A DNA stretch of 64,000 bases from Parcubacteria group bacterium (GTDB taxonomy: Bacteria; Patescibacteriota; Minisyncoccia; Phycocordibacterales; Zambryskibacteraceae). The notes under the pieces are model-generated. The model saw nothing but the letters and a program-made list of their open reading frames with translations, was not told the DNA's origin and made no database searches. The DNA lies in NCBI GenBank assembly GCA_028286565.1, contig JAQBRH010000004.1, positions 122,168-186,167 on the forward strand. Direction: 5' to 3'. This document shows positions 3,547 to 30,538 of the stretch, in pieces (within the stretch, counting starts at the first letter, position 1; every line of letters starts with the position of its first letter). A program made the translations under genes and the position numbers.

Positions 3547-4149
3547 TTATTCGAGAATGCCGTCAATGTTCGCATCGTAGAGTATCTTCTCTTGGATCGA
3601 TGTATAGCCGATGAGCTCTTCGGGTCTCCACCAGATCTGTATCTCCCGCTCGGCTTCTTCTATCTTGTCTGAACAGTGCATGAGGTTCCTGACCGCTCGG
3701 CCGTCGACGTTGGCTATCTCATATGAATCGAGGGTAAGGTCTCCTCGGATAGTGCCGACGTCGGAGGTGGTAGGTTCGGTGCCACCGACGAGCTTTTTCA
3801 CGATATCCACCGCCTTGTTGCCTTCTACAACGAATCCGACGATCGGCCCGAGAGTGAAGTATCTATAAAGAGCGTCCAAAATGCCTCGACCGTATTCGAG
3901 AGCGGTCTTTTCTGCGGTTCCGCCGTTCTTAATGAGAGCATCAATGGTCCTCTGCCCCGCCTTCTCACACCAAGCGTCGTCCTTGCCATAATGTTCGACG
4001 GTTTTGTCCATAGCCGGGACGAACATCTTGAGCCCGACGATCTTGAGACCGGTCCGCTCGATCCGGCTGATGATCTCCCCTACGAGTCCCCGCTGTACGC
4101 CGTCGTGCTTCACCACCACGAATGTCCGCTCTTTCTTTGGATGATTCAT
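3547..4149 (-). CDS. ndk: Nucleoside diphosphate kinase (long form with an insertion)
   Basis: N-terminal ERTFVVVKHDGVQRGLVGEIISRIERTGLKIVGLKM is the classic NDK fold signature. The protein is 200 aa, longer than the typical ~140. Confidence 0.9.
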   Translation of the reverse strand: MNHPKKERTFVVVKHDGVQRGLVGEIISRIERTGLKIVGLKMFVPAMDKTVEHYGKDDAWCEKAGQRTIDALIKNGGTAEKTALEYGRGILDALYRYFTLGPIVGFVVEGNKAVDIVKKLVGGTEPTTSDVGTIRGDLTLDSYEIANVDGRAVRNLMHCSDKIEEAEREIQIWWRPEELIGYTSIQEKILYDANIDGILE

Positions 4150-4183: not shown

Positions 4184-4217
4184 ATAAAAAAAGCTCGCCC
4201 TACACGGAGACGAGCTT
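4184..4217 (-). terminator. Terminator hairpin (aagctcg...cgagctt) overlapping the stop codon of the 111-aa gene, followed by a T-run on minus
   Basis: 7-bp stem; the minus strand reads hairpin then tttttttattggg. Confidence 0.5.
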
Positions 4218-4535
4218 GGAAAGAATGCCCCCGACGAGCTGCTTGGTGGGGAGCTTCCCGAAATGAGGCTCGGGGATCGGATCGATGACGCTGACCATGA
4301 AGGCCACCTCGAGGAGCTCCTTCCTAAGGGCGGACAAGAGGGACGGGGCCGCGTTCTTGTCCTCATCATCATACGGTCCGCAGGTGAACTCCTGGCCTTT
4401 GAATTCCACGTGTATGCAGTACATCGGACTCTCCGGAGGGGGTGTCTCGCGGTAGCTTACTATACCCACAACGCTCGCGCCAGCAAAAGAAAAACCGCCA
4501 AGCACGTGAGGTGCGGCGGCTATTAAGAAGGACAT
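4200..4535 (-). CDS. Hypothetical protein (111 aa)
   Basis: ORF whose start overlaps the upstream 146-aa gene by 13 nt (translational coupling) and which ends in a terminator; no recognisable motifs. Confidence 0.45.
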   Translation of the reverse strand: MSFLIAAAPHVLGGFSFAGASVVGIVSYRETPPPESPMYCIHVEFKGQEFTCGPYDDEDKNAAPSLLSALRKELLEVAFMVSVIDPIPEPHFGKLPTKQLVGGILSKLVSV

Positions 4536-4963
4536 AACTCTAAATAAAAGAAATTGTGCGCTCGAAGAAACTCAACCAGCTCTCCTGAAGTGAGGCTGCG
4601 TCCAAGCTCCTTCTGAACAGCTAGCACCTCAGCGGCAATTAAGGCACGCTTAGTGTGCCTTGCAGAAAAACCCTGAGCTTGAAATTCTTCTACTCGGCTC
4701 GCCCACTCTCTGGTCCAAATTGAGAACCTGGACATAGGACGGAAACGGTTATTCGCGTCATCCCACACACGCACAGCGCGCAATCCCCGCAATCTGTCAT
4801 GAGGGTTTATACCGTGCTTGTTGCATTGTTGTCTTGCCCACTCTCGTGTTCGGTCAAAAATAAGTCCAATGTCGTGGAGGGAATATTGCTCTTCCTCAAT
4901 CAGCAACCTAAGTGAGGGCACGAAGTCTTTATGGCTCACAAGAGAGCTCGCCTTACGTCCCAT
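4523..4963 (-). CDS. Hypothetical protein (146 aa) with a C-terminal helix-turn-helix-like segment
   Basis: C-terminal TKRALIAAEVLAVQKELGRSLTSGELVEFLRAHNF resembles a DNA-binding HTH. Assigned on pattern only. Confidence 0.45.
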   Translation of the reverse strand: MGRKASSLVSHKDFVPSLRLLIEEEQYSLHDIGLIFDRTREWARQQCNKHGINPHDRLRGLRAVRVWDDANNRFRPMSRFSIWTREWASRVEEFQAQGFSARHTKRALIAAEVLAVQKELGRSLTSGELVEFLRAHNFFYLELCPS

Positions 4964-9912: not shown

Positions 9913-10101
9913 TTACCAAGAAGCCTTCTTTACTCCGGGGATCTTGCCTTCGTTGGCAAGCTCTCTGAAGCAGATACGGCAGAGACCGAAGTCTCGCATG
10001 AATCCTCGTCCTCGACCGCATCGAAAACAGCGGTGAGTGGCCCGAGTGCTGAATTTCGGGGTCTTTTTGGATCGTGCGATGACTGAGGTCTTTGCCATGT
10101 G
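9913..10101 (-). CDS. rpsZ: 30S ribosomal protein S14 type Z (zinc-binding)
   Basis: 61-aa protein with a CxxC...CxxC zinc ribbon ([23 protein letters not shown]). Start taken at [12 protein letters not shown] rather than the track start. Confidence 0.9.
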
Positions 10102-10399
10102 AATAGAAAACGGCTTCAAAGCCGATGTGCTAGCTTATCATAGCCAATCCATATATTGCAAGGCCGTTTAGGAAAGGTCTATACTCAAGGGAGACCCCCT
10201 GTTCCCTGTCCTAAGGACCCCCGTGAATGTACATATAATTATCGAGCTGGCCCGAGGATTTGAGCCCGAGATCGGGCTTCTAGCCCTGATGTTCGCCTTT
10301 TGGCCCATCCTAGAGAAACCCAAGCCCTGGCTTCCCAAACCAATTTCTCGTCACCCGGACTATCCCATGCTCAGATCGCACGCCGACCTTGTAGCCGAA

Positions 10400-10444
10400 G
10401 AGGAGGAAGAGAACAAGAAACGCCCAAAGCCGCCCGAAGGCGGT
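10400..10444 (-). terminator. Terminator/attenuator-like hairpin (ccgcc-cgaa-ggcgg) plus U-rich tract directly after the rplE stop, inside the spc operon
   Basis: Minus-strand read TAA...ACCGCCTTCGGGCGGCTTTGGGCGTTTCTTGTTCTCTTCC. The U-tract is imperfect. Confidence 0.4.
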
Positions 10445-10459
10445 TGTTCATTTCTTCTT

Positions 10460-13631: not shown

Positions 13632-13970
13632 TTATTTCTTATCTGCGGACCCCTTGGCGGCCTTAGCGGCGGAGACTTCTGCCTCCTTTTTCTTGATCTC
13701 GAGGTCCTTTTGCATCTTTCCTCCGTGCTTGGTGAACTTCCTGGTGAGGGAGAACTCTCCGAGTCTGTGGCCGACCATGTCTTCGCTCACGAAGACCTCG
13801 ATATGGTCCTTGCCGTTGTGGACGCCGAAAGTAAACCCGACCATCTCAGGAGCGATCTGCGAGGCTCGGGCCCAGGTCTTGATAACACCGGTTGTACCGG
13901 GTTTCTTGCCCTCTATCTTTTTAAGGACGCGAGGGTCGACATATGGGCCTTTTTTGCTTGATCGTGTCAT
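13632..13970 (-). CDS. rpsS: 30S ribosomal protein S19 with a lysine-rich C-terminal tail
   Basis: Core [14 protein letters not shown]...[35 protein letters not shown] matches S19, with an extra ~25-aa K/A-rich tail. Confidence 0.95.
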
Positions 13971-14008
13971 GAGAAATAAAGAAAGCTCGCACGAGCTTCG
14001 GGAAATAT

Positions 14009-14035
14009 AGTATAGAAATCAGGCTTTAATGTCAA
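14009..14035 (-). promoter_or_regulatory. Strong consensus promoter for rpsS: -35 TTGACA, 15-nt spacer, -10 TATACT, followed by a 5'-UTR hairpin (13993-14008)
   Basis: Minus-strand read TTGACA-ttaaagcctgatttc-TATACT...cccgaagctcgtgcgagctttc...ATG. It shows that rpsS heads its own transcription unit after the S10-cluster split. Confidence 0.5.
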
Positions 14036-14036
14036 A

Positions 14037-15473
14037 TTGGGCCTCTCTGCATGCTATGATATCCGCATGGATTCGGACCGCATGAGGTTAAAAGCTCTCG
14101 AAAGGGAAAAACTCGAGAAGGAAAAGGCTATCCATCCTGAGTTTTTCCCCGAGCAGGCCTGGGTGGACGATAAAGAACTCCTCGAAACCTTGGGTATTCA
14201 TATACCGAACAAGGAGAACCTCCCAAGTGCTTATCTCAAGCTCCTTCCGAGTGACTTCATAGTGGAAGAAGAAACCCAGACCGGGTACCAAACTGACACC
14301 CTCCCTGAACGTACTGCCCTAACAGGAGAAGATGGAGGCACTGTGTATGCGACGCTCGTCAAATGCGGGCTTTCGACCATTGAAGCGGTGGATGAGCTGG
14401 CTAAGCTTTTGAACACAACCAAAGACAAGATCCAGTACGCCGGCATCAAAGACAAGGACGCCGTCACCTCTCAAGAAATTTCTTTTAGAGGCTCTTCGCT
14501 TGAAGCGATAAAGAATATGCGCTCTCCCCATTTCTTCCTCAAGGATGTACGCCCGGGCAAGGGCATCGTGATGCGAGGAGGACTTAACGCAAATAGATTT
14601 ACTATCCTCCTGCGAATAGGAGAAGACATGGAAGATAAGGCTAAGATGAAAAATGCCCTCGAAGCTCTTGAGAGGGTAAAGAATGAAGGGTTTTATAATT
14701 ATTTTTATCTTCAAAGGTTCGGTTCTCCGCGTCTCAATAACTACAAATGGGGGCTTTCTATACTTAAGGGTGACTACGAAAAGGCTGTTCGAGGGCTTAT
14801 CTCGGATCCGGGACTTCGAGAGATACCGTTTTTCTTGAAACAAAGAGAGGAGATCATCGCTCTGGCTCCCGATTGGGCCAAGGTGCTCGCCCGACTGAAT
14901 GAATTCCCTCTCGTCTTCCCTAGCGAGATCAGGGTAGTAGGGCATCTCGTGCAAAAACCGACCGATTTTCTTGGAGCTCTGATGAAGATCGAGGAGCAAG
15001 TTGTACTCTGGGTAAGCGCGGTCGCGTCTCTCATGTATAACCGCAAAGTGAGCGCATACCTCATGGCAGGAATGGAACCCCCCCGCACGCTCCCCCTCTT
15101 CCTCAGTCCGGACAAGAACGATTGGCTGCCCTATATGGAAGATATGGAAAATGTGGGGATCTTCCCTCCTAACTTCAATACTCTTCGGTCATTCCAGCGA
15201 ATATCCATTATGCATAAAGAGATAGAAACCAAGGACAAACCGAAGATCCATGCGGCAGAGGTCATCGCCGAAGGGATCGTGGTCAATTTTTCTCTTGGAA
15301 AAGGAGAATACGCGACCACTTTCCTCTCTCATTTCGTAAATTTATTGAACGGCTGGCCTCCGAAAGAAATGAATGGCGAGATCATCGACCTCAAAAAGCA
15401 TTTGGGCCAAGAACCTCTTGAAAAGACTCTCAAGTATTTCGAGACTGTAAATCTATCCAAGAAAAACGAGTAA
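14037..15473 (+). CDS. truD: tRNA pseudouridine synthase, TruD/Pus7 family
   Basis: Family motifs PSDFIVEE (PEDFxVxE), YAGIKDKDAVTSQ (GxKD catalytic-Asp loop) and NYFYLQRFG (NYFGxQRFG). The likely true start is MDSDRMRL at 14067, 6 nt after a TATGAT -10, i.e. leaderless. Confidence 0.75.
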   Translation: MGLSACYDIRMDSDRMRLKALEREKLEKEKAIHPEFFPEQAWVDDKELLETLGIHIPNKENLPSAYLKLLPSDFIVEEETQTGYQTDTLPERTALTGEDGGTVYATLVKCGLSTIEAVDELAKLLNTTKDKIQYAGIKDKDAVTSQEISFRGSSLEAIKNMRSPHFFLKDVRPGKGIVMRGGLNANRFTILLRIGEDMEDKAKMKNALEALERVKNEGFYNYFYLQRFGSPRLNNYKWGLSILKGDYEKAVRGLISDPGLREIPFFLKQREEIIALAPDWAKVLARLNEFPLVFPSEIRVVGHLVQKPTDFLGALMKIEEQVVLWVSAVASLMYNRKVSAYLMAGMEPPRTLPLFLSPDKNDWLPYMEDMENVGIFPPNFNTLRSFQRISIMHKEIETKDKPKIHAAEVIAEGIVVNFSLGKGEYATTFLSHFVNLLNGWPPKEMNGEIIDLKKHLGQEPLEKTLKYFETVNLSKKNE

Positions 15474-15480
15474 AAGAAGA

Positions 15481-15509
15481 GGCCGAACCCGTAGGTTCGG
15501 CCTTTGTCC
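15481..15509. terminator. Bidirectional terminator ggccgaacc-cgta-ggttcggcc between convergent truD and the 188-aa gene
   Basis: Perfect 9-bp stem with U-rich flanks on both strands. Confidence 0.7.
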
Positions 15510-15528
15510 ATTGAAGGACCCTTCTCAC

Positions 15529-16095
15529 TTACTGAACTGCCGCCGCGTGACGACTGTCCATCTCGGCGTCAGCCGGCCGGTCGATGCGCTCGATCCCGGC
15601 GGGAACTCGCTTCTCGTTCGTGAAGAAGAACTTCACGAGGACAAGCTTGATCTCGTCGAGCCGGACACCGTCGGTAACCGGGCCTTCGAAGCCGGCAGGG
15701 ACGATGCCGAGTACGTCATCGCGAACGGTGACGTTCTGCTTCGGCGAGCCCTGTTGGACACCGACGAAGTTGATCGTCAGCACGCCGTTCGGATTCAGCC
15801 AGATGTGGCAGAACCAGGGCGTCGATGCGAGGTCGCGAAGCGCTTCGGTCGTCGCACGGCTGAGCTCCGCGATCGGAGTGCCAGCCGGCGAGTACGCGAG
15901 TGTGACAACGAACTTGGTAGTGGCGCCTTCCTTCTGCTGCTTGTGCATCTGAGCGCGATCGAGGCCAAAGCCTGCGTTCGTGAGTGCTCGACGGACGAGC
16001 TCTGCGCTCACCATCTTCTCGTTGTTGTAGATCTGCACACCGGTGTCGACGCGTCCATCGCGGATACGTCCGACTGCTGCGAGATTCTCGGTCAT
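15529..16095 (-). CDS. Hypothetical protein (188 aa); visibly GC-richer than its neighbours
   Basis: Long ORF bounded by terminators on both sides, with no recognisable catalytic motif. The segment GVLTINFVG is weakly reminiscent of small heat-shock protein beta-strands; this is not established. Confidence 0.5.
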   Translation of the reverse strand: MTENLAAVGRIRDGRVDTGVQIYNNEKMVSAELVRRALTNAGFGLDRAQMHKQQKEGATTKFVVTLAYSPAGTPIAELSRATTEALRDLASTPWFCHIWLNPNGVLTINFVGVQQGSPKQNVTVRDDVLGIVPAGFEGPVTDGVRLDEIKLVLVKFFFTNEKRVPAGIERIDRPADAEMDSRHAAAVQ

Positions 16096-16214
16096 GCGAC
16101 TTCCTCCGGGCTTCTGCCCTAGTGGTAAGTGAGGAGTGAATGTACATCAGGTACCTGCCTGATTTGTTAATCATATCATATTCAATACCCAATGTCAAGA
16201 ACAACTAAGGCGCA

Positions 16215-16241
16215 GAAAAGGGCCCAACTGGGCCCTTTTCC
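16215..16241. terminator. Bidirectional terminator gggccc-aact-gggccc
   Basis: Perfect 6-bp GC stem flanked by aaaag and ttttcc. Confidence 0.65.
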
Positions 16242-16273
16242 GGCTATTTCGGTATTATCTAGCGTATACCGAG

Positions 16274-16963
16274 TTAGCGCTTGTCGCTCATTTCGCCGCG
16301 AACGCGTTCGATGAAGCGTCCTGCCGCTTCCTGTCCGCCGAGGCCGAAGGAGAGGCCAAGGGCAAGAGAGATAGCGATCACGATGCCTGTGAAGAGAGTT
16401 TGCGAGAATGCCGCTGCGATACCAAGCTGTGAAAGAGCGACGAGGATGGTGAAGATCCAGATTGCCCACTTGGCGATCGTGCCTGCGAAGTGCGCTGAGG
16501 TGATCTGAGCGCTCTTTGCTGCGGTGACGACCACTCGGTCGACCACATCCCCTACCACGCCTCCGACGAGGAGGATGAGGGCTGCGACGATAACACGAGG
16601 GAGGTACGCAATGACAACGTCCTGGAGGAATACGTTGACCTGGTTAAGGCCGAGGACGTTGAAGGCTGCGATAAGGAACACGAGGATCACGAACCACTTG
16701 ACGAGACCGCCGATGAAGGCGCCTGAGTCGAGGTTCATGCCGCTTCGTCGAAGGAATGTTTCAAATCCTGCTCGGCGAAGCGCTTCGTCAACACGGAGAG
16801 ATCGGAACACCTGCCAGATCGCTCGGCCAAAGAGTGCGCCGATGAGCCATCCCAAGATGAGGATGATGATCGCGATAATAAGGTTTGGAACAAAGCTGAC
16901 GATCCCTAACCAAAGATTTTGGAAGGAAAGAGTCAATACTTGTCCCCATGTAGTCATAATCAT
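16274..16963 (-). CDS. Membrane protein with internally repeated conserved-TM-helix modules (MscS N-terminal-like)
   Basis: 229 aa, 5-6 TM segments and two similar halves (LWLGIVSFVPNLIIAIIILILGW... and AKWAIWIFTILVALSQLGIAAAF...). Assigned on pattern only. Confidence 0.6.
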   Translation of the reverse strand: MIMTTWGQVLTLSFQNLWLGIVSFVPNLIIAIIILILGWLIGALFGRAIWQVFRSLRVDEALRRAGFETFLRRSGMNLDSGAFIGGLVKWFVILVFLIAAFNVLGLNQVNVFLQDVVIAYLPRVIVAALILLVGGVVGDVVDRVVVTAAKSAQITSAHFAGTIAKWAIWIFTILVALSQLGIAAAFSQTLFTGIVIAISLALGLSFGLGGQEAAGRFIERVRGEMSDKR

Positions 16964-17079
16964 ATATTCTGGACTGTAGACCGTTACTTATTAATTACCA
17001 CCCGATGTGGTTATGCCCTATTATACACCTCTATTTCTGATTTAAATCAACTCTTGGCCCGACTGTGGATAGGAATCGC

Positions 17080-17640
17080 CTAGAGCCCGAGTTTGTTGTG
17101 GATCTTCTTGTGGTTAAAATCGAGAATATCGCGGACAAGCTTGTCGTAGAGGCCCAAGCGATAGTGGAAATCGGCGGTCTCAAAAGCCGCATAGCGGATC
17201 TCTCGGCCAAGTTCGGCTTCGATCGACTCTATGGCGTGGATAAGGATCCCCTTCTTCAAATGGTCGCCGACAACAAGGAGGTCGACCCGAGCTTCGGGGT
17301 CATGAAGGAATACGCCGGAGATGAGCACGAGCTTGAGGGCGCCGCCGCGGGCCAGCTTTTTTATGAGCTCCTTTTCGGTGATCGGGGTCGCATCGACGAG
17401 GAAATGCTCGAGGGGCTTTAGGTATCTGTATACGGTGTTCAAGGTGTAGCCCTTGGCCCTCTTCCTGATGAGGCCGGAGCGGTGGAGATTTCTGATCTCT
17501 CGGGCGACGAGCGGGCGTCGTTCTTGGGTTCGTTCGGCGACGGTCCCGGCATCATAGACGGAGCCCGGATTAAAGACAAAGAGGCGCATGATCTTTACTT
17601 TAGCCTCTCCGCCGAATATCTGAGCAACCGATTTGGTCAT
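17080..17640 (-). CDS. Hypothetical protein with an N-terminal winged-helix DNA-binding-like domain
   Basis: N-terminal KVKIMRLFVFNPGSVYDAGTVAERTQERRPLVAREIRNLHRSGLIRK resembles a wHTH. The C-terminal part (LVLISGVFLHDPEARVDLLVVGDH...) might be a degenerate nucleotidyltransferase-like fold; this is uncertain. Confidence 0.55.
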   Translation of the reverse strand: MTKSVAQIFGGEAKVKIMRLFVFNPGSVYDAGTVAERTQERRPLVAREIRNLHRSGLIRKRAKGYTLNTVYRYLKPLEHFLVDATPITEKELIKKLARGGALKLVLISGVFLHDPEARVDLLVVGDHLKKGILIHAIESIEAELGREIRYAAFETADFHYRLGLYDKLVRDILDFNHKKIHNKLGL

Positions 17641-17724
17641 GGGGCCATTCTACACATATCCCCTGCGAGGCGCCAGGGCAATAAAAAGCTGGCATAAATT
17701 GCCAGCTACCCCTTCCGATTTGGT

Positions 17725-18177
17725 TCAGGTTCCAAATATAGCGTTGACTAGTCTCCTGGCATCAGCATCTCGAGCAGCATCGGCATCTCGAGCGGCATGA
17801 GCAACCTGAGCTTGCCACCTTATGGCATCTTGAGCCCAGCCGCAAGGCACATACAAATGCTCAGGCTTGAAGTCATTGCAGAGTTTGGCTAGGTTATCGA
17901 CCTTCACCTTAACGAAATCGATCTGCTTTTGCTCCTGATCGAAAGTCATGACCCACAGTTCCTTGCGCACTTTGCCTTTGTTCTCGAGATGCATCCTGCG
18001 TGTGTCGAGCAGAACGTGTGCACTCTCGGTGGTCTGCACCAGTCCTCTACTACGTAACAACTCCCAGACTTCGCTTAGAAGACACCACCCCCAGTAGGCC
18101 ATCTTTCCCGCACGTTCGAATTCGTCTGAATTACCGTGGAGGTGATATGTCTGGGGTAACACCGGAAGAAGTTGCAC
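17725..18177 (-). CDS. Hypothetical protein (150 aa) with a short ARDADA tandem repeat at the C-terminus
   Basis: ORF with no motifs. A 21-nt near-perfect tandem duplication at about 17760-17805 encodes ARDADAARDADARR. Confidence 0.45.
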   Translation of the reverse strand: MQLLPVLPQTYHLHGNSDEFERAGKMAYWGWCLLSEVWELLRSRGLVQTTESAHVLLDTRRMHLENKGKVRKELWVMTFDQEQKQIDFVKVKVDNLAKLCNDFKPEHLYVPCGWAQDAIRWQAQVAHAARDADAARDADARRLVNAIFGT

Positions 18178-18277
18178 GATGGATCCTTCCTGCCTTGGGC
18201 AGGTGGCTTAAGGATAATGGGTGCACGGGGTGTGCAGTCCGAAAATTAAAATATCACAACATTATAGGTTAGTCAAC

Positions 18278-18355
18278 ACAAAACCCCGCCATGCGGGGTT
18301 TTGTCCCCTCTCCCTACCTAGGAGAGGGGAGACACGGCGTACGGGTGAGGTTATT
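18278..18355 (-). repeat. Copy A of a ~70-nt 3'-flank element: two tandem hairpins (ccccgc/gcgggg and ccctctcc/ggagaggg) plus U-tract, abutting a stop codon
   Basis: Near-identical to 21118-21186 (aaaa-cccc-gcgggg-ttttgtc-cctctcc...taggagagggg...ggtgaggttattt). Acts as a terminator for minus-strand transcription. Confidence 0.7.
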
Positions 18356-18419
18356 TGAGTGTTACTTTTCCACCAGCCGTCGTCGCAAGCTCCTCCTTAA
18401 GAACCCTCGGTTCTCAACG
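18351..18419 (-). pseudogene. Degenerate duplicated 3' end of rplL (encodes ...EPRVLKEELATTAGGKVTLK then stop)
   Basis: Hand translation of the minus strand gives GGKVTLK-stop, identical to the C-terminus of the intact rplL 150 nt away (..EEAGGKVTLK), preceded by a related LKEEL segment and an in-frame TGA upstream. Confidence 0.55.
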
Positions 18420-18502
18420 AAAAATGCCCATATGGGCATTTTTCTGCTTTCCTCCACGGGAGACCAGATGTTCTCCCGACCCCTCTCAAGCTGTCGTAAA
18501 AG

Positions 18503-18991
18503 TTACTTTAAAGTAACTTTTCCTCCAGCTTCTTCGATTCGCTTCTTCAATTCTGCGGCTTCTTCGTTCTTCATATCGGTCTTCAACATAGAAGGAGCTG
18601 CGTCGACGAGATCCTTGGCTTCCTTGAGGCCGAGTCCGAGGATTTCCTTGACCACCTTGATGACGGCGATCTTGTTCGCACCGCCGTCGGTGAGCTCAAC
18701 GTTCGCGGTCGACTTTGCGTCTTCTGCAGGACCCGCTGCGGCGGCCGGGCCGGCTGCGGCGACGGCGGTAGCCGAGACGCCGAACTTCTCTTCGAATACC
18801 TTGACGAGTTCGTTAAGGTCGAGGACAGACATCTCTTCGATCTCCTTTACGATCTTTGAGAACTTCGCAGGAACTGCGACTTCTTTCTCCGCCTTGGCTT
18901 CAGGCTTAACTTCCGCCTTAGCCTCTGCTTTGGCCTCGGGAGCGGGAGCGGCAGTTTCCTCCGCCGGTGCTGTGTTTGTAGTGTCGTCCAT
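18503..18991 (-). CDS. rplL: 50S ribosomal protein L7/L12
   Basis: Ala/Glu-rich hinge and C-terminal domain (GGANKIAVIKVVKEILGLGLKEAKDLVDAAPSMLK...EEAGGKVTLK). Confidence 0.93.
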   Translation of the reverse strand: MDDTTNTAPAEETAAPAPEAKAEAKAEVKPEAKAEKEVAVPAKFSKIVKEIEEMSVLDLNELVKVFEEKFGVSATAVAAAGPAAAAGPAEDAKSTANVELTDGGANKIAVIKVVKEILGLGLKEAKDLVDAAPSMLKTDMKNEEAAELKKRIEEAGGKVTLK

Positions 18992-19009
18992 TGTGGTAAT
19001 TTTAATTTA

Positions 19010-19498
19010 TTAAGACTTCTTCTCTGCTATCTGACCGAGCGCGATAGCGAAACGCTGTATCGGAGAATTGATGATGTTCACGAACATGCCTCGGAGCACC
19101 GGAGTGGTCGGGATCGTAGCGATCCCCTCCATCTCGGACTTCGACATGTATCTTCCTTCGAAAACTCCGCCGAGGATCTTCAATCCTTCAGGGAATTTCT
19201 TCTGGAATCCGTAGACTCCTCTCGCCGGAGCGATGAGGTCATCGGACCAGGCCATAGCGAGCTCGCCTGTGAGTTCGGGCTGAGCGCCTTCGAACTTTTC
19301 GGAATCGAGCACGCGCTTGGTCAAGGATTTCTTGGCCACCGAGTACGACACTCCCTCTGTTTTGAGGGTGCGGCGCATGGCGGAAGCCTGCGAAACCTTG
19401 AGGCCGTGGAAGTTGACGAAGACGAGGGACTTGGCGCTCTTTAGAGCATCCGCGAGCTTGTCTACAATTTCTCCTTTCTTGGCTTTGGATATTGCCAT
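19010..19498 (-). CDS. rplJ: 50S ribosomal protein L10
   Basis: 162-aa L10 (MAISKAKKGEIVDKLADALKSAKSLVFVNFHGLKVSQASAMRRTLK...) immediately upstream of rplL. Confidence 0.93.
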   Translation of the reverse strand: MAISKAKKGEIVDKLADALKSAKSLVFVNFHGLKVSQASAMRRTLKTEGVSYSVAKKSLTKRVLDSEKFEGAQPELTGELAMAWSDDLIAPARGVYGFQKKFPEGLKILGGVFEGRYMSKSEMEGIATIPTTPVLRGMFVNIINSPIQRFAIALGQIAEKKS

Positions 19499-19664
19499 GC
19501 TGTTAATGGTTAACGAACAAAAAAAGACCCATATAAGGCCTCGACATCCACATATGAAATGGGAGTGAGAGAGATCTCGGAAGGAGCTTAGTACCCTTGC
19601 GGGCTGCCTTCTGTCTTCGACCTTACGGGGATTACTTTATAGGAAAACGGAGAAAAGTCAAATA
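19499..19664 (-). promoter_or_regulatory. Long 5' leader of rplJ (candidate L10 autoregulatory leader) with upstream -35 TTGACT / -10 TAAAGT
   Basis: About 150-nt untranslated region between a terminator (19665-19690) and the rplJ start. L10 operons classically carry a structured leader bound by L10-(L12)n. The structure here was not verified. Confidence 0.35.
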
Positions 19665-19690
19665 AAAAAATCCTGACCGTAGTCAGGAAA
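19665..19690 (-). terminator. Terminator cctgac-cgta-gtcagg plus T7 run (minus orientation)
   Basis: Minus-strand read tttcctgactacggtcaggattttttt; it overlaps the stop of the 91-aa ORF at 19683. Confidence 0.6.
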
Positions 19691-19958
19691 CTTGGGATAC
19701 AACTCTCAGGCCCAGTCGCGCCGCATGGAAGCGCCGATAGGAAGAAATGTTCGGGATAGTCTCCGTAAGCTCTCGGAGCTTTTTGTGAAGCTCATCCGGA
19801 TTGTAGCGGATAAAAGCTCTCCGACTACCGCCTCTTCTTTCTACGCACCAGAGGCAGAAGTCGAGATACAGCCATTCCGCAAGACCGAAGATCGCAAGGG
19901 CAAAGAATACATAAGACGCAGCCAATGGGCGCATACGCTCCTCTCTGAGAAAGGACAT
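19683..19958 (-). CDS. Possible small membrane protein (91 aa)
   Basis: ORF ending in the terminator above, with a hydrophobic segment YVFFALAIFGLAEWLYLDFCLWCV. A competing plus-strand ORF overlaps it, so the call is low confidence. Confidence 0.3.
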   Translation of the reverse strand: MSFLREERMRPLAASYVFFALAIFGLAEWLYLDFCLWCVERRGGSRRAFIRYNPDELHKKLRELTETIPNISSYRRFHAARLGLRVVSQVS

Positions 19959-20014
19959 GGGTCTAAAGCCAGACTATCTTAATTAAAATAAAAAGCAAAT
20001 AAAAAAGCACGAAA

Positions 20015-20290
20015 TTATTCGCGCTGAGCGGGAACGTAATGTTCGACGGTGCAGGCAGAAACACTCTCGATCGCAAGGGGGTTTTTCGCCCGCAGCGTAT
20101 TGCATCGCTTGAGCAGAAGTTCTGCACGCTGCTGAATGAAGACTGTGGGCGCGTCCGTCTGAGCGAGGACGAGCAAGTGGCCAATGTCAGAGATGATCTT
20201 GCGCCGAAGCTTGAGTCTCTCAGGATCAGCTCTGTTAGCCTGAGCATCCTCTTCTGCGGTGGGCATTTCGTCGATATCGGGACCGGGCAT
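20015..20290 (-). CDS. Hypothetical small protein (91 aa, acidic N-terminus)
   Basis: GAGGA RBS 6 nt upstream of the ATG and a perfect TTGACA -35 further upstream. A competing plus-strand ORF (20039-20332) cannot be excluded. Confidence 0.35.
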   Translation of the reverse strand: MPGPDIDEMPTAEEDAQANRADPERLKLRRKIISDIGHLLVLAQTDAPTVFIQQRAELLLKRCNTLRAKNPLAIESVSACTVEHYVPAQRE

Positions 20291-20398
20291 TGTGTCCTCA
20301 CTGGTAAAAGAGCGTGTACCTTACTCCTTTAAGAAATATCATTTCAACCAACTAATGTCAATCAAAAAACTCGGGGATTTTTGAATTTTAAACGTGTA

Positions 20399-20737
20399 TT
20401 ACTTCGGTTCAACAATTACCGCTGTGCCGTAGGCGAGGACTTCGGTGACGCCCTGCATCAGCTCTGTGGTGTCGTATTTGAACCCTATGACGGCGTTTGC
20501 GCCCATTTCTGCAGCATGGGTGAGCATCAGGTCAAAAGCATCTTCTCTGGTCTTCTCGCAGAGTTCGGTCAGGATCGTGATGTTCCCTCCGATGAGAGTC
20601 TGGAGCCCCGCTCCGATCGATCCGACGATCGAACGCGAACGCACAATGATGCCTCGAGAAATACCGATATTCTTTACTACCTTATACGCATCGAGCTCGA
20701 ACGCTGTGGTCACCATGTTGTGGGGTATTGTTGTCAT
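20399..20737 (-). CDS. YbjQ/UPF0145 family protein
   Basis: ~110-aa protein with the typical Gly-rich repeated pattern (GIIVRSRSIVGSIGAGLQTLIGGNITILTE...GANAVIGFKYD...GTAVIVEP). Confidence 0.8.
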   Translation of the reverse strand: MTTIPHNMVTTAFELDAYKVVKNIGISRGIIVRSRSIVGSIGAGLQTLIGGNITILTELCEKTREDAFDLMLTHAAEMGANAVIGFKYDTTELMQGVTEVLAYGTAVIVEPK

Positions 20738-20809
20738 AAACCTATTTTAACACAAGCAAAAATCAATTTTTACGTGAGATATCCCAGGAGAGAAGGGATA
20801 AATTAAACC

Positions 20810-21103
20810 TCAGGAAGTCCAAATGGAACTGATAATCCAAACTGAACCGAGGATCAGGATGACCGCAGAGACTCCAAACAAAGTAATAAATCTTCCCTCT
20901 TGTTGTTTTCTGACTTCACTCACCAGTCCCACAATCAGTCCAAGAATTGCAACAATAGCTACGATTATCGCAGCACCGTAAATGCCAAAAGCGACTCCGA
21001 AGCCTTCCGCACCGCTAGCTGTATTGCTTTCGTATATCCAAAAGAATAAATGCACAACTACCACAGCTATAAGTGAAAGAAACACCTTGGTAATTATTTT
21101 CAT
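20810..21103 (-). CDS. Small membrane protein (97 aa, 3 TM)
   Basis: Start taken at the internal ATG (MKIITKVFLSLIAVVVVHLFF...). The track ORF runs upstream into rplB and is not credible. The ATG lies 6 nt after a TATACT (leaderless pattern). Confidence 0.55.
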   Translation of the reverse strand: MKIITKVFLSLIAVVVVHLFFWIYESNTASGAEGFGVAFGIYGAAIIVAIVAILGLIVGLVSEVRKQQEGRFITLFGVSAVILILGSVWIISSIWTS

Positions 21104-21117
21104 ATATACAGTATATA

Positions 21118-21186
21118 CACAAAATCCCCTTGCGGGGACTTTTGTCTCCCTCTCCTTTCGTCTAGGAGAGGGGTGGGGTGAGGTTA
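21118..21186 (-). repeat. Copy B of the ~70-nt tandem-hairpin 3'-flank element, immediately after the rplB stop codon
   Basis: The alignment to 18278-18355 is near-identical across both hairpins and through the stop codon (ggtgaggTTAttt). Confidence 0.7.
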
Positions 21187-22023
21187 TTTCTTTCCGACCT
21201 TTCGTCTTCGGACGATGAATTTGTTCGAGTATTTCTTTGCTCGGCGGGATTTCTGGCCCTTTCCGGTCGGCTTGCCGTAGATAGAGATCGCTCGGCGTCG
21301 TCCTCGACCCTGGCGGCCTTCTCCTCCTCCGTGCGGGTGGTCGACGGGGTTCATGGCCGTACCGCGGACGGTAGGGCGAATGCCAAGCCATCGTGAGCGT
21401 CCGGCCTTCCCGAGGTTTGTGAGGCGGTTCTCATCGTTCGAGACCTCGCCGATGGTTGCCCAGGCGTTCTCAGGGACCTTCCTCACTTCGCTCGAAGGCA
21501 TCTTGATGTCCACGTAGCCTCCGTCCTTGGCCGAGACCTCGACATAGTTCCCTCCTGATCGAGCTACTCGCGCGCCTCCTTGAGACTTGAGCTCGACGTT
21601 GTAGATAAATGTTCCGACGGGGATGTTTTTGAGGGGAAGCTTGTTGCCGGGAACGAGCGGAGCATTATCTGAAGCGATGAAAGTATCTCCGACCTTCACA
21701 TTCTTCGGGAGAAGGGCGTATCGCCTCTCTCCGTCCTTGTAGGCCACGAGTCCGATGAATCCCGAGCGGTTCGGATCGTATTCAACGGTCTTCACGGTGA
21801 AGGGGACGTTCGGCTTGTTGTATGTAAAATCAATGTCTCGGAACAATCTTTTGTGCCCGCCACCCTTGTGTCGAGTAGTGATGCGCCCGGTGTTGTTGCG
21901 TCCGTTCGCTCGGCGAAAACCGGTGGTAAGGGACTTCAAAGGCTCGCTCTTCGTCAAGAACTTCTTGAATTCGACGTGAGTCGTTTGTCGGTTCGATTTG
22001 GTTGTGGGTTTGTATCGTTTCAT
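21184..22023 (-). CDS. rplB: 50S ribosomal protein L2
   Basis: 279-aa L2 (..GRNNTGRITTRHKGGGHKRLFR..., C-terminal GGGEGRQGRGRR...). Confidence 0.97.
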   Translation of the reverse strand: MKRYKPTTKSNRQTTHVEFKKFLTKSEPLKSLTTGFRRANGRNNTGRITTRHKGGGHKRLFRDIDFTYNKPNVPFTVKTVEYDPNRSGFIGLVAYKDGERRYALLPKNVKVGDTFIASDNAPLVPGNKLPLKNIPVGTFIYNVELKSQGGARVARSGGNYVEVSAKDGGYVDIKMPSSEVRKVPENAWATIGEVSNDENRLTNLGKAGRSRWLGIRPTVRGTAMNPVDHPHGGGEGRQGRGRRRAISIYGKPTGKGQKSRRAKKYSNKFIVRRRKVGKK

Positions 22024-25367: not shown

Positions 25368-25607
25368 TGTATTTTAAAGTGAGTTAATGAGACGAAGAGA
25401 GCGCGCGAGAACTGTTGCTCTCTTCGGCCCAGAACCGGTAATAAGCGCGCAGTAAAGCCATATACATCTGATTCTTATAAAGATTAGATCTCAAAGAGCC
25501 AAACGAACATAGCACATAACGCGTAAGCGCTATCTTAGCAGAGGGGTCAAAATAGTCAATGCCTTACGGGCTAAAACGGCAGGATAAGAAAAAATCCCAG
25601 CTTTCGG

Positions 25608-25940
25608 CTAGGACGAACGGCGGCGGAACATGAGCGACCGAGAGCTGAACGGCTCTTTGGGCGAATCTCCATAGACCTCGAAGGGAAACTCGGCGGCTTG
25701 AAGCCAGATATTCGTGATCCGGACATGCTCTTCGGTCATGCCAGGGGATCGGCATACCTCGCCGAAGCCATAGGCGGTGATGAGTACCTTGCAAAGGTCC
25801 AAGTCCCCTTCAAAGTGGACGAGCATATTCTCGTACGTCTCCTTGTCCGGCTTGCTCGGTGCTTCTGCGCGCGGTTTTGCGACAGCACCGCAGTCCGAGC
25901 CCACATATGTGGCCACTTCATCTGATCCGGGGTTCGACAT
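25608..25940 (-). CDS. Hypothetical protein (110 aa)
   Basis: ORF only; sits between the 105-aa ORF and tuf. A hairpin without a U-tract (25404-25437) follows it. Confidence 0.3.
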   Translation of the reverse strand: MSNPGSDEVATYVGSDCGAVAKPRAEAPSKPDKETYENMLVHFEGDLDLCKVLITAYGFGEVCRSPGMTEEHVRITNIWLQAAEFPFEVYGDSPKEPFSSRSLMFRRRSS

Positions 25941-26010
25941 GCATACCTCTCTTTGGAGTGCGAGTCTGCAGCTACTCTATACCAAGTCAGAGGTAAAAGA
26001 AAAGACCCCG

Positions 26011-26328
26011 TTATTCCGGGGTCACACGCTTGAGGATCACCTTGCCTTCTCTGGTAAGGCGGACTCGATGGGGCTTCTTGTGCTGGACAAAAACCCCGTT
26101 CATCCCTCCAACAATGGATCGCGCCCCTGAAGGAAGGTCGTTGATCTTGCACTCACCGGTCTTCGAGAGGAGGGCGAGGACAACGCGCGCGCCCTCCGCT
26201 TTGAAGAATCGGCTATAATCGGCCAGTTCATCAGGAGTCGGAAGGTCATCCTCGTCCGGGCCTGCAGATGTATACATATGCATGTCTCCACAAAGGGTCT
26301 GGGGACACTGTACTGAAACAAAAGACAA
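26011..26328 (-). CDS. Hypothetical small protein, possibly winged-helix-like (start uncertain; MHMYTS at 26283 is plausible)
   Basis: C-terminal RVVLALLSKTGECKINDLPSGARSIVGGMNGVFVQHKKPHRVRLTREGKVIL resembles a wHTH. Assigned on pattern only. Confidence 0.35.
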   Translation of the reverse strand: MSFVSVQCPQTLCGDMHMYTSAGPDEDDLPTPDELADYSRFFKAEGARVVLALLSKTGECKINDLPSGARSIVGGMNGVFVQHKKPHRVRLTREGKVILKRVTPE

Positions 26329-26334
26329 AAGAAA

Positions 26335-26350
26335 AGCCCCTCTCGGGCTC
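26335..26350 (-). terminator. Terminator agccc-ctctc-gggct followed by a U-rich tract, closing the 609-aa gene
   Basis: Minus-strand read agagcccgagaggggcttttcttttgtcttttg. Confidence 0.55.
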
Positions 26351-26370
26351 TTACAACCTCTGCCTCCTAT

Positions 26371-28200
26371 TTATCTCATAAGCCTGAACTTGAGGAATTC
26401 CTTGATGGTCATACTTAGCTCCTCTCCCGCCGGCTTAAGGGTCTCGAGCGCCAAAGCGCTCTTAACGGACTCATCGGATGCACTCGCGTCGGCGATCTTC
26501 TGCAAAGCCTCGGCGACGCTAGTGTGCTCCGGATCGATCGAATTGTAGATGCTTTCCGAAACCCCGAGCTCATGGCTCAGTTCTACAGGACTTACTTCAG
26601 ACAAAGGAAGGATAGGTTCATGCAGATCTATAGAATTATCCATGGCCTTCGATATTTCCGGCTTGGTATCCATAAGGCCGTGGAGCTTATTGACCTTCTC
26701 TTGGACGAGATCAGAAATTTTGTACGCGGGCTCGGGAGGAGCTTCGTGGATAGGCAGGACCGGTCCTGCGTGAGGCAAAGCAGTTACAGTTTCTGCCTCG
26801 GGGACGGCTTCATGCACTTCTACCTCCGGGACAAGAGCAGTGTGGGCCGTATCTACTGATGAAAGATCGGCCCTCGCTTCGAGAGCGACCGCTTGGACAT
26901 GCGCTAAATTTTCCCACAGACGATAGAAAGAGGTGGTAATGGTTTCGACCGTGGCCGCAGCTACCAAGGTCTTGCCTGCGAACCGAGCATATCGCGCCGC
27001 CATGGCCAGCCCGTCGACGGTTCCATACTGAGTGACGATCTTATCGAATTCCTGGAGGGTTTTTTCTTGTTTGGCAAAAAGGGCTTGTTTCTTTGTTTCT
27101 TTCTCTCTGGGAGAAAGTTTTGGATTGTTTTCTATTTTTGAAATTTTCTTTTCAAGGCTTTCTACGATCGAACTCACTTCCCTCTTCAGCATGCCTTGAA
27201 CGAATTTGTTCGCTTCCGCCGGAGTAGCTCTGCCCAATCTCTCCATGAGGTCTTTTGGCATCTTCTCTGTATAGGCCTTTTTGAGGTCTTCCGCCGTGAT
27301 TTCATGACCTTGGGATTCATCTTCGGCCTTTGTATAAATATTCCAAGCTTCTTCCTCTGCCTTATCCACATCAGCAAGTCTTGTCTGCTCGATCACCTCT
27401 TCGTTTTGCAGACGGACTTCTAGGGCAGCATCTCCGCCTCTGGCCACTCCGGCGCCGGCAAGCATCACGTAGCGGAGCGGAGAAGCGATGGCGTTGCCCG
27501 CAAAGTCGGCCGCGATACGTCCGTATTTCATCACATTTCCGGCCAAAGAAAGGGCATTCGAGATACGGGCGGTCTTCCCGTTCTTTGCATCAATGCCTTT
27601 TTGATACGCGGCATCGGCATCTTTAGTAAAAGAATCCCTGAGGGCGCCGCACCATTTGTTTACCGGATGATCCTCGCCGATCTTTTTTATCGTGTCCGAA
27701 TTGAACCAGCCGGCAAAGATCCTGTTCTTCTTTTCATCGAGGTTGAAGCCTATCCTATTCAGTCCCCACCCGATCTTTTCCCTTTCCGGAGCAGGGATAG
27801 CCTCTATCTCTGCCGCCGCCTTATCCTCCCAGCTTTCTTCCGATCCTTCTGAGACTTCTGAACTTCCGCCGAATAAAGACTTAGCCTTTCCCCAAAAGGT
27901 TTGCTTCTTGGATTTTTGTCTTTCAGCTACCTTGGTTAAAAATTCCGCTGAAGAATACGTAAAAGCTGGATTCGGGTCCCATGTCTCACCTTTATGAGGG
28001 TGTTTAAGTTCAGGCCCGGTCGGTTCAGGAGCGGGCGCTTCATCTTTTTTGGCCTTTGGCTCTTGTTCGATCGGCATTGCTAGAGAGATCTCTCTTTCGA
28101 GCATCTTCTCTGCTTCTTCTTGAGTAACAGGAATAGGAACTTCCACATCCCTCGGATTTTCTGGAGAATTACTCGAATTGTTCTCGAATCTTTCGGACAT
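26371..28200 (-). CDS. Large acidic hypothetical protein (609 aa) inserted between fusA and tuf
   Basis: Uninterrupted 1.8-kb ORF with no TM segment and no catalytic motif, rich in E/K/A/S. It has its own upstream terminator/promoter region (28231-28272) and a downstream terminator, so it is monocistronic. Confidence 0.7.
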   Translation of the reverse strand: MSERFENNSSNSPENPRDVEVPIPVTQEEAEKMLEREISLAMPIEQEPKAKKDEAPAPEPTGPELKHPHKGETWDPNPAFTYSSAEFLTKVAERQKSKKQTFWGKAKSLFGGSSEVSEGSEESWEDKAAAEIEAIPAPEREKIGWGLNRIGFNLDEKKNRIFAGWFNSDTIKKIGEDHPVNKWCGALRDSFTKDADAAYQKGIDAKNGKTARISNALSLAGNVMKYGRIAADFAGNAIASPLRYVMLAGAGVARGGDAALEVRLQNEEVIEQTRLADVDKAEEEAWNIYTKAEDESQGHEITAEDLKKAYTEKMPKDLMERLGRATPAEANKFVQGMLKREVSSIVESLEKKISKIENNPKLSPREKETKKQALFAKQEKTLQEFDKIVTQYGTVDGLAMAARYARFAGKTLVAAATVETITTSFYRLWENLAHVQAVALEARADLSSVDTAHTALVPEVEVHEAVPEAETVTALPHAGPVLPIHEAPPEPAYKISDLVQEKVNKLHGLMDTKPEISKAMDNSIDLHEPILPLSEVSPVELSHELGVSESIYNSIDPEHTSVAEALQKIADASASDESVKSALALETLKPAGEELSMTIKEFLKFRLMR

Positions 28201-28230
28201 GGCAAATATTTTGTAGTTTTAATATAACAC

Positions 28231-28253
28231 AAAAGCCCCGAACGGGGCTTTTG
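28231..28253. terminator. Bidirectional terminator gccccg-aa-cggggc after fusA
   Basis: 6-bp GC stem flanked by aaaa and ttttg. A TGtTATATT extended -10 follows on the minus strand, ahead of the 609-aa gene. Confidence 0.65.
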
Positions 28254-28272
28254 CTATATCTCGATCCTGTGG

Positions 28273-30441: not shown

Positions 30442-30507
30442 AAAGTGATAAATTTCGGCTAAAAATAAAAAGCTCCTACGGCTTTGATGGCATTAGAATA
30501 CATGATT

Positions 30508-30538
30508 TATCCCTTTTGGGCAATAGAAAAAGCCCTAT
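30508..30538. terminator. Bidirectional terminator (agccc...gggct) downstream of the 86-aa gene
   Basis: The hairpin is flanked by A and T runs on both strands. Confidence 0.5.

Follow-up and report, generated by a model that had tools for sequence, protein, structure and literature searches.

The genes for ribosomal proteins L3, L4, L23, L2, S19, L22 and S3 follow one another in one of the most conserved gene orders of prokaryotes. In a 64,000-nucleotide (nt) stretch of a Parcubacteria group bacterium genome (assembly GCA_028286565.1, contig JAQBRH010000004.1, positions 122,168 to 186,167; hereafter the window, numbered from its first letter), this series is interrupted between rplB, which encodes L2, and rpsS, which encodes S19. 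The two genes lie 7,213 bp apart (13971–21183). Is this the accident of a single genome, or has the lineage to which it belongs given up the junction?

Comparison with related species points to the lineage, a group of ultra-small bacteria (Parcubacteria; GTDB class Paceibacteria). We consider it very probable that this lineage has an operon boundary at rplB|rpsS, that the boundary acts as a permissive slot with a fast turnover of cargo genes, and that the block found there in the window was built up in layers.

The rplB–rpsS junction in the window and its relatives

All ribosomal-protein genes of the window lie on the minus strand. On that strand, rpsL-rpsG-(86 amino acids, aa)-fusA is followed by genes for a 609-aa and two small hypothetical proteins and then by tuf-rpsJ-rplC-rplD-rplW-rplB, a group in which rpsJ begins 23 bp after tuf and rplB (21184–22023; Pfam Ribosomal_L2_N and L2_C) comes last. 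The L2 protein is 96% identical to that of the closest relative, L081. After the 7.2-kb block, rpsS (13632–13970; Pfam Ribosomal_S19, 2e-32) opens the series rpsS-rplV-rpsC-rplP-rpmC-rpsQ-rplN-rplX-rplE, which is separated by 361 bp from rpsN-rpsH-rplF-rplR-rpsE-(92 aa)-secY-adk-map.

Relatives were sampled by scanning the L2 protein against one genome per GTDB species. This gave 80 loci from the nearest species, all in metagenome-assembled genomes of Parcubacteria or Paceibacteria (labelled Zambryski-, Kaiser-, Nomura- and Campbellbacteria, Paceibacterota and similar) and with an L2 identity of 57–86%, to which two extra loci were added. L081 was found through the 186-aa protein encoded in the block; its ribosomal proteins are ~96% and its DNA ~85% identical to those of the window. 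Spacers were measured after each ribosomal-protein gene had been located by tblastn, and the gap statistics refer to 65 species representatives chosen solely on L2 similarity.

The rplB–rpsS spacer has a median length of 934 bp in this set (n = 65). It exceeds 300 bp in 86% and 2 kb in 16 genomes, and in four more genomes the 10 kb downstream of rplB contain no rpsS. The junctions L3–L4, L4–L23, L23–L2, S19–L22, L22–S3 and S3–L16 are tight, with spacers of more than 300 bp in 0–1% (n = 57–78); between S10 and L3 the median is 78 bp, and 28% of spacers are longer than 300 bp (n = 64). Because gaps of more than 300 bp are found in 86% of the 65 relatives, the rplB|rpsS junction is not conserved in the lineage. 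At least one more break point is lineage-wide, namely rplE|rpsN (L5 to S14; median 884 bp, >300 bp in 66%, n = 47). The remaining junctions of the spc operon are tight (>300 bp in 0%, n = 36–56).

The separation of rplB and rpsS ranges from 85 bp to >10 kb among relatives, and sister genomes on a tree of six proteins differ in gap length (139 versus 7,356 bp; 722 versus 5,000 bp); one small group has gaps of 145, 415 and 864 bp. Open reading frames (ORFs) in the gaps of relatives comprise 98 singletons and a few small families, that is, the content is almost all unrelated between genomes. A Pfam search of 20 of these ORFs returned many ORFans together with ordinary genes, which lie in either orientation and include those for a diacylglycerol kinase, a SAICAR synthetase, a glutamate-kinase-type protein (AA_kinase and PUA) with an aldehyde dehydrogenase, a Mur-ligase-like protein, PKD/CARDB surface proteins, a polysaccharide deacetylase and DUF3298. 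None of the 20 matched an integrase or transposase.

In the mechanism that we propose, the str–S10–spc supercluster would be cut, unlike in Escherichia coli or Bacillus, into the units fusA, tuf-rpsJ-rplCDWB, rpsS...rplE and rpsN...secY. Because rplB|rpsS would be an operon boundary, DNA entering it would leave co-transcription intact; the boundary would therefore be a permissive slot, with a rapid gain, loss and exchange of unrelated genes. Promoter-like sites are present at the cargo genes inspected in the window, and terminator-like hairpins lie downstream of several of these genes.

Promoter, leader hairpin and terminator at the boundary

The predicted rpsS promoter of the window (minus strand) consists of TTGACA (14035–14030) and, after a 17-nt spacer, TACTAT (14012–14007), with the −10 box placed by comparison with relatives. 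Transcripts are predicted to start at 14001–13999, at the first base of a hairpin (13999–13982, minus strand; GAAGCTC-gtgc-GAGCTTT, then CTTTATTT), the stem of which thus lies within 0–2 nt of the 5′ end. A U-rich linker without a Shine–Dalgarno sequence (13981–13971, minus strand) leads to the start codon, and the leader as a whole measures only ~30 nt.

The same module occurs in relatives, where TTGAC(A/T) and a −10 box TAnTAT (often TGnTAnTAT), ~17 nt apart, are followed, after 6–9 nt, by a hairpin of 5–8 bp with a loop of 3–6 nt, a T-run and, 5–30 nt on, the ATG. We found promoter, hairpin and T-run ahead of rpsS in 43 of 53 loci (0.3 by chance, as estimated from shuffles), and the leader hairpins have a mean folding z-score of −1.9. 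Pairing is kept across 22 distinct stems among the 43, with 2–6 pair types at each of the five inner pairs, and two stem classes dominate, AAGCTC/GAGCTT and CCCGC/GCGGG. A MAFFT alignment of 37 of the hairpins was dropped for pair counting because its stems fell out of register; enrichment over shuffles and a loop-anchored tally were used instead. In two loci, L074 and L078, rpsS looks leaderless.

The module is kept where the rplB–rpsS gap is just ~140–160 bp (L038, L039 and L048), which argues that the boundary is independent of cargo. Conservation across relatives likewise indicates that promoter and hairpin were inherited. The preliminary description of this locus, made from sequence alone, had them newly acquired by rpsS, a view that the 43 of 53 relatives contradict; both elements are present as it said, with the −10 box 2 nt from the TATACT that it had chosen. 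Its measure of the split, and its judgement that the split is functionally accommodated and not a recent accident, stand. Gene order in the relatives, where gaps are lineage-wide, shows that the split is not specific to this genome, an outcome that the description had itself named as lowering the novelty.

In the rpsS leader, an RNA structure is thus conserved at the head of a ribosomal-protein operon, and a survey of known and candidate ribosomal-protein leaders contains none for S19 (PMC7247131). Rfam searches found nothing relevant and no known ribosomal-protein leader, at gathering score, in the window and 145 kb of relatives; at E up to 5, nothing relevant was found in 13.5–25.8 kb of the window.

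On the other side of the boundary, two hairpins follow directly on the rplB stop (21117–21173, minus strand). The second, TCCCC-GCAA-GGGGA (21138–21125) followed by TTTTGTGT, resembles an intrinsic terminator. In both relatives inspected, L081 and L002, a GC-rich hairpin and T-run also stand directly 3′ of the rplB stop. Strict terminator-like hairpins occur within 120 nt past rplB in 21 of 77 loci, against 1–7 of ~60–80 for other genes of the cluster.

Several points weigh against the boundary-and-slot reading or limit its reach. A strict terminator-like hairpin after rplB is present in only 27% of relatives, and in many genomes rplB may share a transcript with the first cargo gene. The rpsS hairpin is itself terminator-like, and efficient termination there would block rpsS expression. 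Promoters, terminators and leaderless starts were identified as consensus matches only; the tree is a neighbour-joining distance tree of six concatenated proteins with no support values; and the sample covers the 80 nearest species and the two extra loci, which bounds the extent over which the trait can be stated.

Although the GC-rich stem and U-run of the rpsS hairpin fit an intrinsic terminator, its position between a promoter and an essential gene does not, and for this reason it cannot be an efficient one. In the window no same-strand gene reads into it; the upstream neighbour, a TruD gene, is divergent. Because the hairpin would be inefficient as a terminator, nothing reads in and the conserved genes have no Shine–Dalgarno sequences, our preferred reading, a tentative one, is a 5′-terminal stabiliser with a U-rich ribosome-loading site. 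Stabiliser hairpins at the 5′ terminus are known from the E. coli ompA and Bacillus subtilis aprE and ermC mRNAs. Like these, the rpsS hairpin stands 0–2 nt from the predicted 5′ end and upstream of a highly expressed operon; unlike them, it has a U-run directly after the stem, and its AAGCTC/GAGCTT stem recurs across genomes. An attenuator responding to a protein or a nucleoside triphosphate is possible, at a lower probability than the stabiliser. It is unlikely that the hairpin would act as an insulator against read-through, with its 5′ arm overlapping the start site.

Similar elements stand at other operon heads. A strict search for promoter, hairpin and T-run in 1.33 Mb of related loci found 76 modules, of which 43 precede rpsS, 17 tuf and 2 rplC; both rplC cases are in genomes in which rplC is split from rpsJ. 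In the window, tuf starts with a promoter, an early hairpin and a T-run (25368–25559; leader ~130–190 nt). The head of fusA (30442–30520) likewise has a promoter, an early hairpin (30486–30460) and a T-run, and its hairpin AAGCCGTAGGAGCTTTTTATTTTT is similar to rpsS leaders of other genomes. At the second break point, rplE is followed by a terminator and a gap of 361 bp (10099–10459), and rpsN (ATG at 10098) is preceded, at 2 nt, by a hairpin GGCTTTGAAGCC with a T-run. A conserved motif ahead of rpsN (..ttctcctttaa..ttaaagaaaaaaagtgagatattaac..) is common to many relatives and could represent a leader not yet described.

A broader proposal, speculative and in our view doubtful, is that the module of promoter, hairpin and U-tract at rpsS, tuf, fusA, rpsN and split-off rplC would act as a cis-regulatory leader specific to the lineage. 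In Paceibacteria it would take the place of the classical L4 and S8 autogenous leaders and allow the supercluster to be cut into independently controlled units, and the cuts at rplB|rpsS and rplE|rpsN would be preferred landing pads for gene relocation in reduced genomes. Such a leader could work as an attenuator or as a protein-binding RNA.

Contents and history of the block

The oldest part of the block appears to be a module of four genes on the minus strand. These are rplJ (L10; 19010–19498; Pfam Ribosomal_L10), rplL (L12; 18503–18991; Pfam L12_N and L12), a gene for a Parcubacteria-specific 186-aa protein, h186 (17080–17640), and one for a 229-aa membrane protein with MscS ‘conserved TM helix’ repeats (16274–16963; Pfam MS_channel_1st_1, 5e-16; partial match to NCBIfam msc), which is 98% identical in L081. 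The model of h186 (predicted local distance difference test score, pLDDT, 81) has an N-terminal winged helix and a C-terminal alpha/beta domain. In a fold search only the MarR/IclR-like winged-helix part matches solved structures; the alpha/beta domain has no match among them. The protein has 1,549 homologues, none informatively named.

The four genes occupy the rplB|rpsS slot in L001–L007, L012, L081 and L084 (the contig of L003 ends after rplJ), and those of these genomes that have enough markers form one clade on the neighbour-joining tree. L019 has the same genes between fusA and tuf; in L015 and L025, where fusA is not in view, they lie upstream of tuf. Whichever slot is used, both the h186 gene and the MscS-like gene adjoin rplJL in every locus seen, and rplJL is unlinked to rplKA or rpoBC in the ~13 loci in view. 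In the first layer, an autonomous rplJL unit with promoter, leader and terminator, together with the winged-helix and MscS-like genes, would have entered the slot once, in the ancestor of the clade.

The rplJL unit has a predicted promoter and leader of its own (19499–19661, minus strand), with TTGACT-16-TAAAGT and a 5′ untranslated region (UTR) of ~130 nt that ends in a hairpin and T-run (19542–19518). This leader is kept in about 10 relatives. Its helix GAAGG/CCTTC (CGTAAGGTCAAAGACAGAAGG...CCTTCCGAGA) shows compensatory changes at four of the five predicted pairs among 12 sequences. The L10(L12)4 complex binds the rplJL leader known as L10_leader, an attenuation type known in Bacillus. The 5′ UTR resembles this type, with putative L10(L12)4 binding: it has its own promoter, a leader of ~130 nt, a covarying helix and a terminator-like hairpin before the rplJ ATG. 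It departs from L10-leader operons in having no link to rplKA or rpoBC, winged-helix and MscS-like genes in place of rpoB, and no hit for the Rfam L10_leader model (E up to 5).

Beside the rpsS promoter, and divergent from rpsS, lies a gene for a 468-aa TruD of the archaeal/Pus7 type (14067–15473, plus strand; Pfam TruD, 1.5e-51, 176 bits against a cut-off of 27). Its best solved relatives are the archaeal Methanosarcina mazei TruD (1z2z; 1e-19) and human and yeast Pus7, and E. coli TruD reaches just 1e-5. The start at ATG 14067 agrees with a 100%-identical database protein and with a 468-aa homologue in L002. The translation contains YAGIKDKDAVT, which we take to hold the TruD-family GxKD catalytic aspartate (compare Asp80 of E. 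coli TruD). A 188-aa gene converges on it (15529–16095, minus strand), with a G+C content of 0.617 against a window mean of 0.525, the Shine–Dalgarno-like motif GGAGGA and a strong promoter-like site, TTGACA-17-TATGAT (16198–16170, minus strand). A 10-bp GC-rich hairpin between the two genes (15480–15503) is likely to be a terminator serving both.

The slot contains TruD in the window and in L001, L002 and L084. The 188-aa gene lies beside it in the window, L001 and L002 (L084 was not searched for it), and its only homologues are those of L001 (61%) and L002 (41%). In L081, TruD is absent from the slot, and unrelated 501-aa and 192-aa genes are there instead; in two distant Paceibacteria it stands at unrelated positions. 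Among the 120 matches listed for the protein, all have the Pfam TruD domain, measure ~458–516 aa and, where named, belong to the same group. Since the gene is common in Parcubacteria and lies elsewhere in two distant members, we see in it a relocation within the lineage and not a recent import from archaea. In the second layer, TruD and the GC-rich 188-aa gene would have entered later than the rplJL module.

The third layer would hold the youngest additions: the YbjQ gene, small membrane ORFs and the ORFans of 150 and 91 aa, all on the minus strand. The YbjQ-family gene (20399–20737; Pfam YbjQ_1, 2e-27) is 93% identical in L081 and was seen in no other related locus examined. A small membrane-protein ORF of ~97 aa (20810–21103; G+C content 0.41) has three hydrophobic segments in a crude scan and no Pfam or NCBIfam family. 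The 150-aa ORF (17725–18177; promoter-like site at 18276–18248) was found in the window only, with no family in Pfam or NCBIfam and no counterpart in any related locus. Two possible ORFs of 91 aa (19683–19958 and 20015–20290), each followed by a terminator-like hairpin (19688–19671 and 20025–20006), are uncertain as genes; no family was assigned to them, and 81 related loci contain no homologue.

Remodelling may also be recorded at the boundary between rplL and the 150-aa ORF (18275–18377, minus strand). The last eight rplL codons and stop recur as a synonymously diverged duplicate (AGGKVTLK, then stop; 18377–18351) ~125 nt downstream of the true rplL stop. Next comes a copy of the double hairpin that stands behind rplB (21117–21186), with 76% identity over the aligned element. 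We read the duplicate and its hairpins as a recombination or gene-conversion scar. A 14-nt exact repeat, the sole lead of a repeat search across the block, belongs to the two terminators, similar to each other, that stand behind rplB and behind the rplL remnant. The double hairpin was considered as a dispersed repeat and rejected as such; pattern and blastn searches gave no copies beyond these two.

Genes of the block and of its surroundings differ in their start signals. Thirteen conserved genes (ribosomal proteins, tuf, fusA, the MscS-like and 186-aa genes) have no Shine–Dalgarno-like motif in the 25 nt upstream; such motifs occur only at the 188-aa and 150-aa cargo genes (GGAGGA and AGGAAGGA). 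Hexamers resembling a −10 box stand exactly 6 nt before four ATGs, those of TruD (TGcTATGAT, 14052–14069, plus strand), the 186-aa gene (TAGAAT, 17640–17652), YbjQ (TGtTAAAAT, 20737–20749) and the ~97-aa membrane ORF (TATACT, 21103–21115; the last three on the minus strand), and therefore suggest that these four mRNAs are leaderless.

The preliminary description had called the block composite, and the nested distribution of its parts among relatives agrees. Its TruD/Pus7-like label is confirmed by matches in the PDB, its rplJ–rplL pair, YbjQ gene and repeat-transmembrane protein by Pfam, and its GC-rich 188-aa ORF by composition. It was also right that rplJ–rplL lies away from its usual locus, with no rplKA or rpoBC adjacent. 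It had named two hypothetical proteins with helix–turn–helix-like segments: the 186-aa protein has a winged helix in its model, and the second could not be confirmed by Pfam or NCBIfam. As for age, the core of rplJL, the 186-aa gene and the MscS-like gene is old and clade-wide, and only the edges (TruD with the 188-aa gene; the 150-aa and 91-aa ORFs) are recent. The block in the window is an ordinary member of its clade.

Other explanations of the block fare less well than a permissive slot filled in layers. The one that survives best, although we think it improbable, is functional coupling: cargo would be kept for co-regulation with the ribosomal proteins, and the winged-helix protein may bind the hairpin palindromes as operators. 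L10/L12 and a tRNA pseudouridine synthase act in translation, so that rplJL, TruD and the flanking genes all serve it; the winged-helix and MscS-like genes accompany rplJL in every locus and any slot; and many genomes share the AAGCTC...GAGCTT stem, which is also present at more than one kind of operon head. However, the cargo of relatives is functionally miscellaneous and hardly ever common to two genomes, TruD lies on the opposite strand and elsewhere in other Paceibacteria, and the cargo genes inspected have promoter-like sites of their own. The hairpins, moreover, vary in stem (22 versions) and loop (3–6 nt) and carry a T-run on one side, which points to an element acting at the RNA level and not to a protein operator. 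We dropped DNA operators of the winged-helix protein as the main reading on the same grounds.

We give far less credence to a single recent foreign island, a mobile element or horizontally acquired segment that would have landed in this genome and after which the rpsS promoter would have evolved. Several ORFs are indeed found in the window only, two genes have Shine–Dalgarno-like sequences unlike native genes, and G+C content is mixed, at 0.41 for the membrane ORF, 0.48 for TruD and 0.62 for the 188-aa gene compared with 0.53–0.56 for ribosomal-protein genes. A fixed position, mixed base composition and content that varies between close relatives are also features of genomic islands and hotspots. 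However, sub-blocks are shared with relatives at graded phylogenetic depth, the rpsS promoter and hairpin are present in 43 of 53 relatives, including cargo-free ones, and TruD is a native Parcubacteria family, the 120 matches listed having the same domain and similar length. Unlike islands, the slots hold ordinary chromosomal genes in either orientation: Pfam and NCBIfam detected no integrase, transposase or recombinase in the block, a repeat search across it found no flanking direct repeats or attachment (att) sites at its edges, and no tRNA gene adjoins it, the nearest being at 55.9–57.4 kb of the window. The least credible explanation, suggested by the metagenomic origin of the assembly, is a chimeric contig (an assembly or binning artefact) joining two halves of the S10 cluster, because the same order (rplB, variable, rplJL, h186, MscS-like, variable, rpsS) recurs in at least 10 independent metagenome-assembled genomes from different studies, and DNA identity to L081 continues across the conserved junctions.

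Further afield in the window, fusA and tuf are 2.9 kb apart (25368–28272), separated by the 609-aa hypothetical gene, which is 57% identical in L081 and has no family, and by the two small ORFs. The fusA|tuf and rpsG|fusA spacings are also variable among relatives. Downstream of map (4200–4963 and 3547–4149, minus strand) lie two hypothetical genes and ndk, and the series usual at this place, infA-rpmJ-rpsM-rpsK-rpsD-rpoA-rplQ, is absent. An M50 peptidase gene, not rpoBC, stands upstream of rpsL, as it does in ~15–20 relatives with this region in view.

Comparison with known systems and significance

Within the literature that could be searched, we found no earlier report of a split S10 cluster in Parcubacteria or the candidate phyla radiation, of rplB–rpsS insertions or of an S19 leader. 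Insertions of unrelated gene sets (tusDCB, bfd-bfr, nrdHEF and ilv-leu) at operon boundaries of the cluster have been described, with breaks between classical operons or within the rpoBC operon (rplL|rsmC); insertion relaxes selection for co-location, and the halves later separate fully (Brandis 2021). The arrangement reported here resembles that pattern in placing cargo between separated parts of the cluster, at distances of 85 bp to >10 kb. It differs in that the breaks fall inside what are the S10 (rplB|rpsS) and spc (rplE|rpsN) operons of E. coli and Bacillus, occur in most species of a large lineage, with content that turns over between sister species, and are followed by units that each start with a conserved leader not previously described.

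Compared with the E. coli S10 operon, the genes and their relative order are the same, and the hairpin and U-run could in principle attenuate. Unlike that operon, the genes would not form a single transcription unit, because a predicted terminator follows rplB and a predicted promoter precedes rpsS, and Rfam places no L4-responsive S10 leader upstream of rpsJ. The rpsS leader, at ~30 nt and with its hairpin first, has no room for an alternative structure.

Conserved blocks of ribosomal-protein genes are widely used to place uncultured bacteria. In genomes such as these, a wide interruption of the ribosomal block should not be taken for misassembly, and the presence, position and content of the slot are natural markers for relationships within Paceibacteria. 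The lineage-wide pattern and the leader element are the parts that merit follow-up. In a large lineage of the candidate phyla radiation, a conserved gene order is routinely broken at two fixed points, and fast-changing cargo occupies the breaks, suggesting that co-transcription of the whole cluster is dispensable. The pattern also draws attention to a leader element, so far undescribed, by which these organisms, with no detectable ribosomal-protein leader of a known kind, may control ribosome synthesis.

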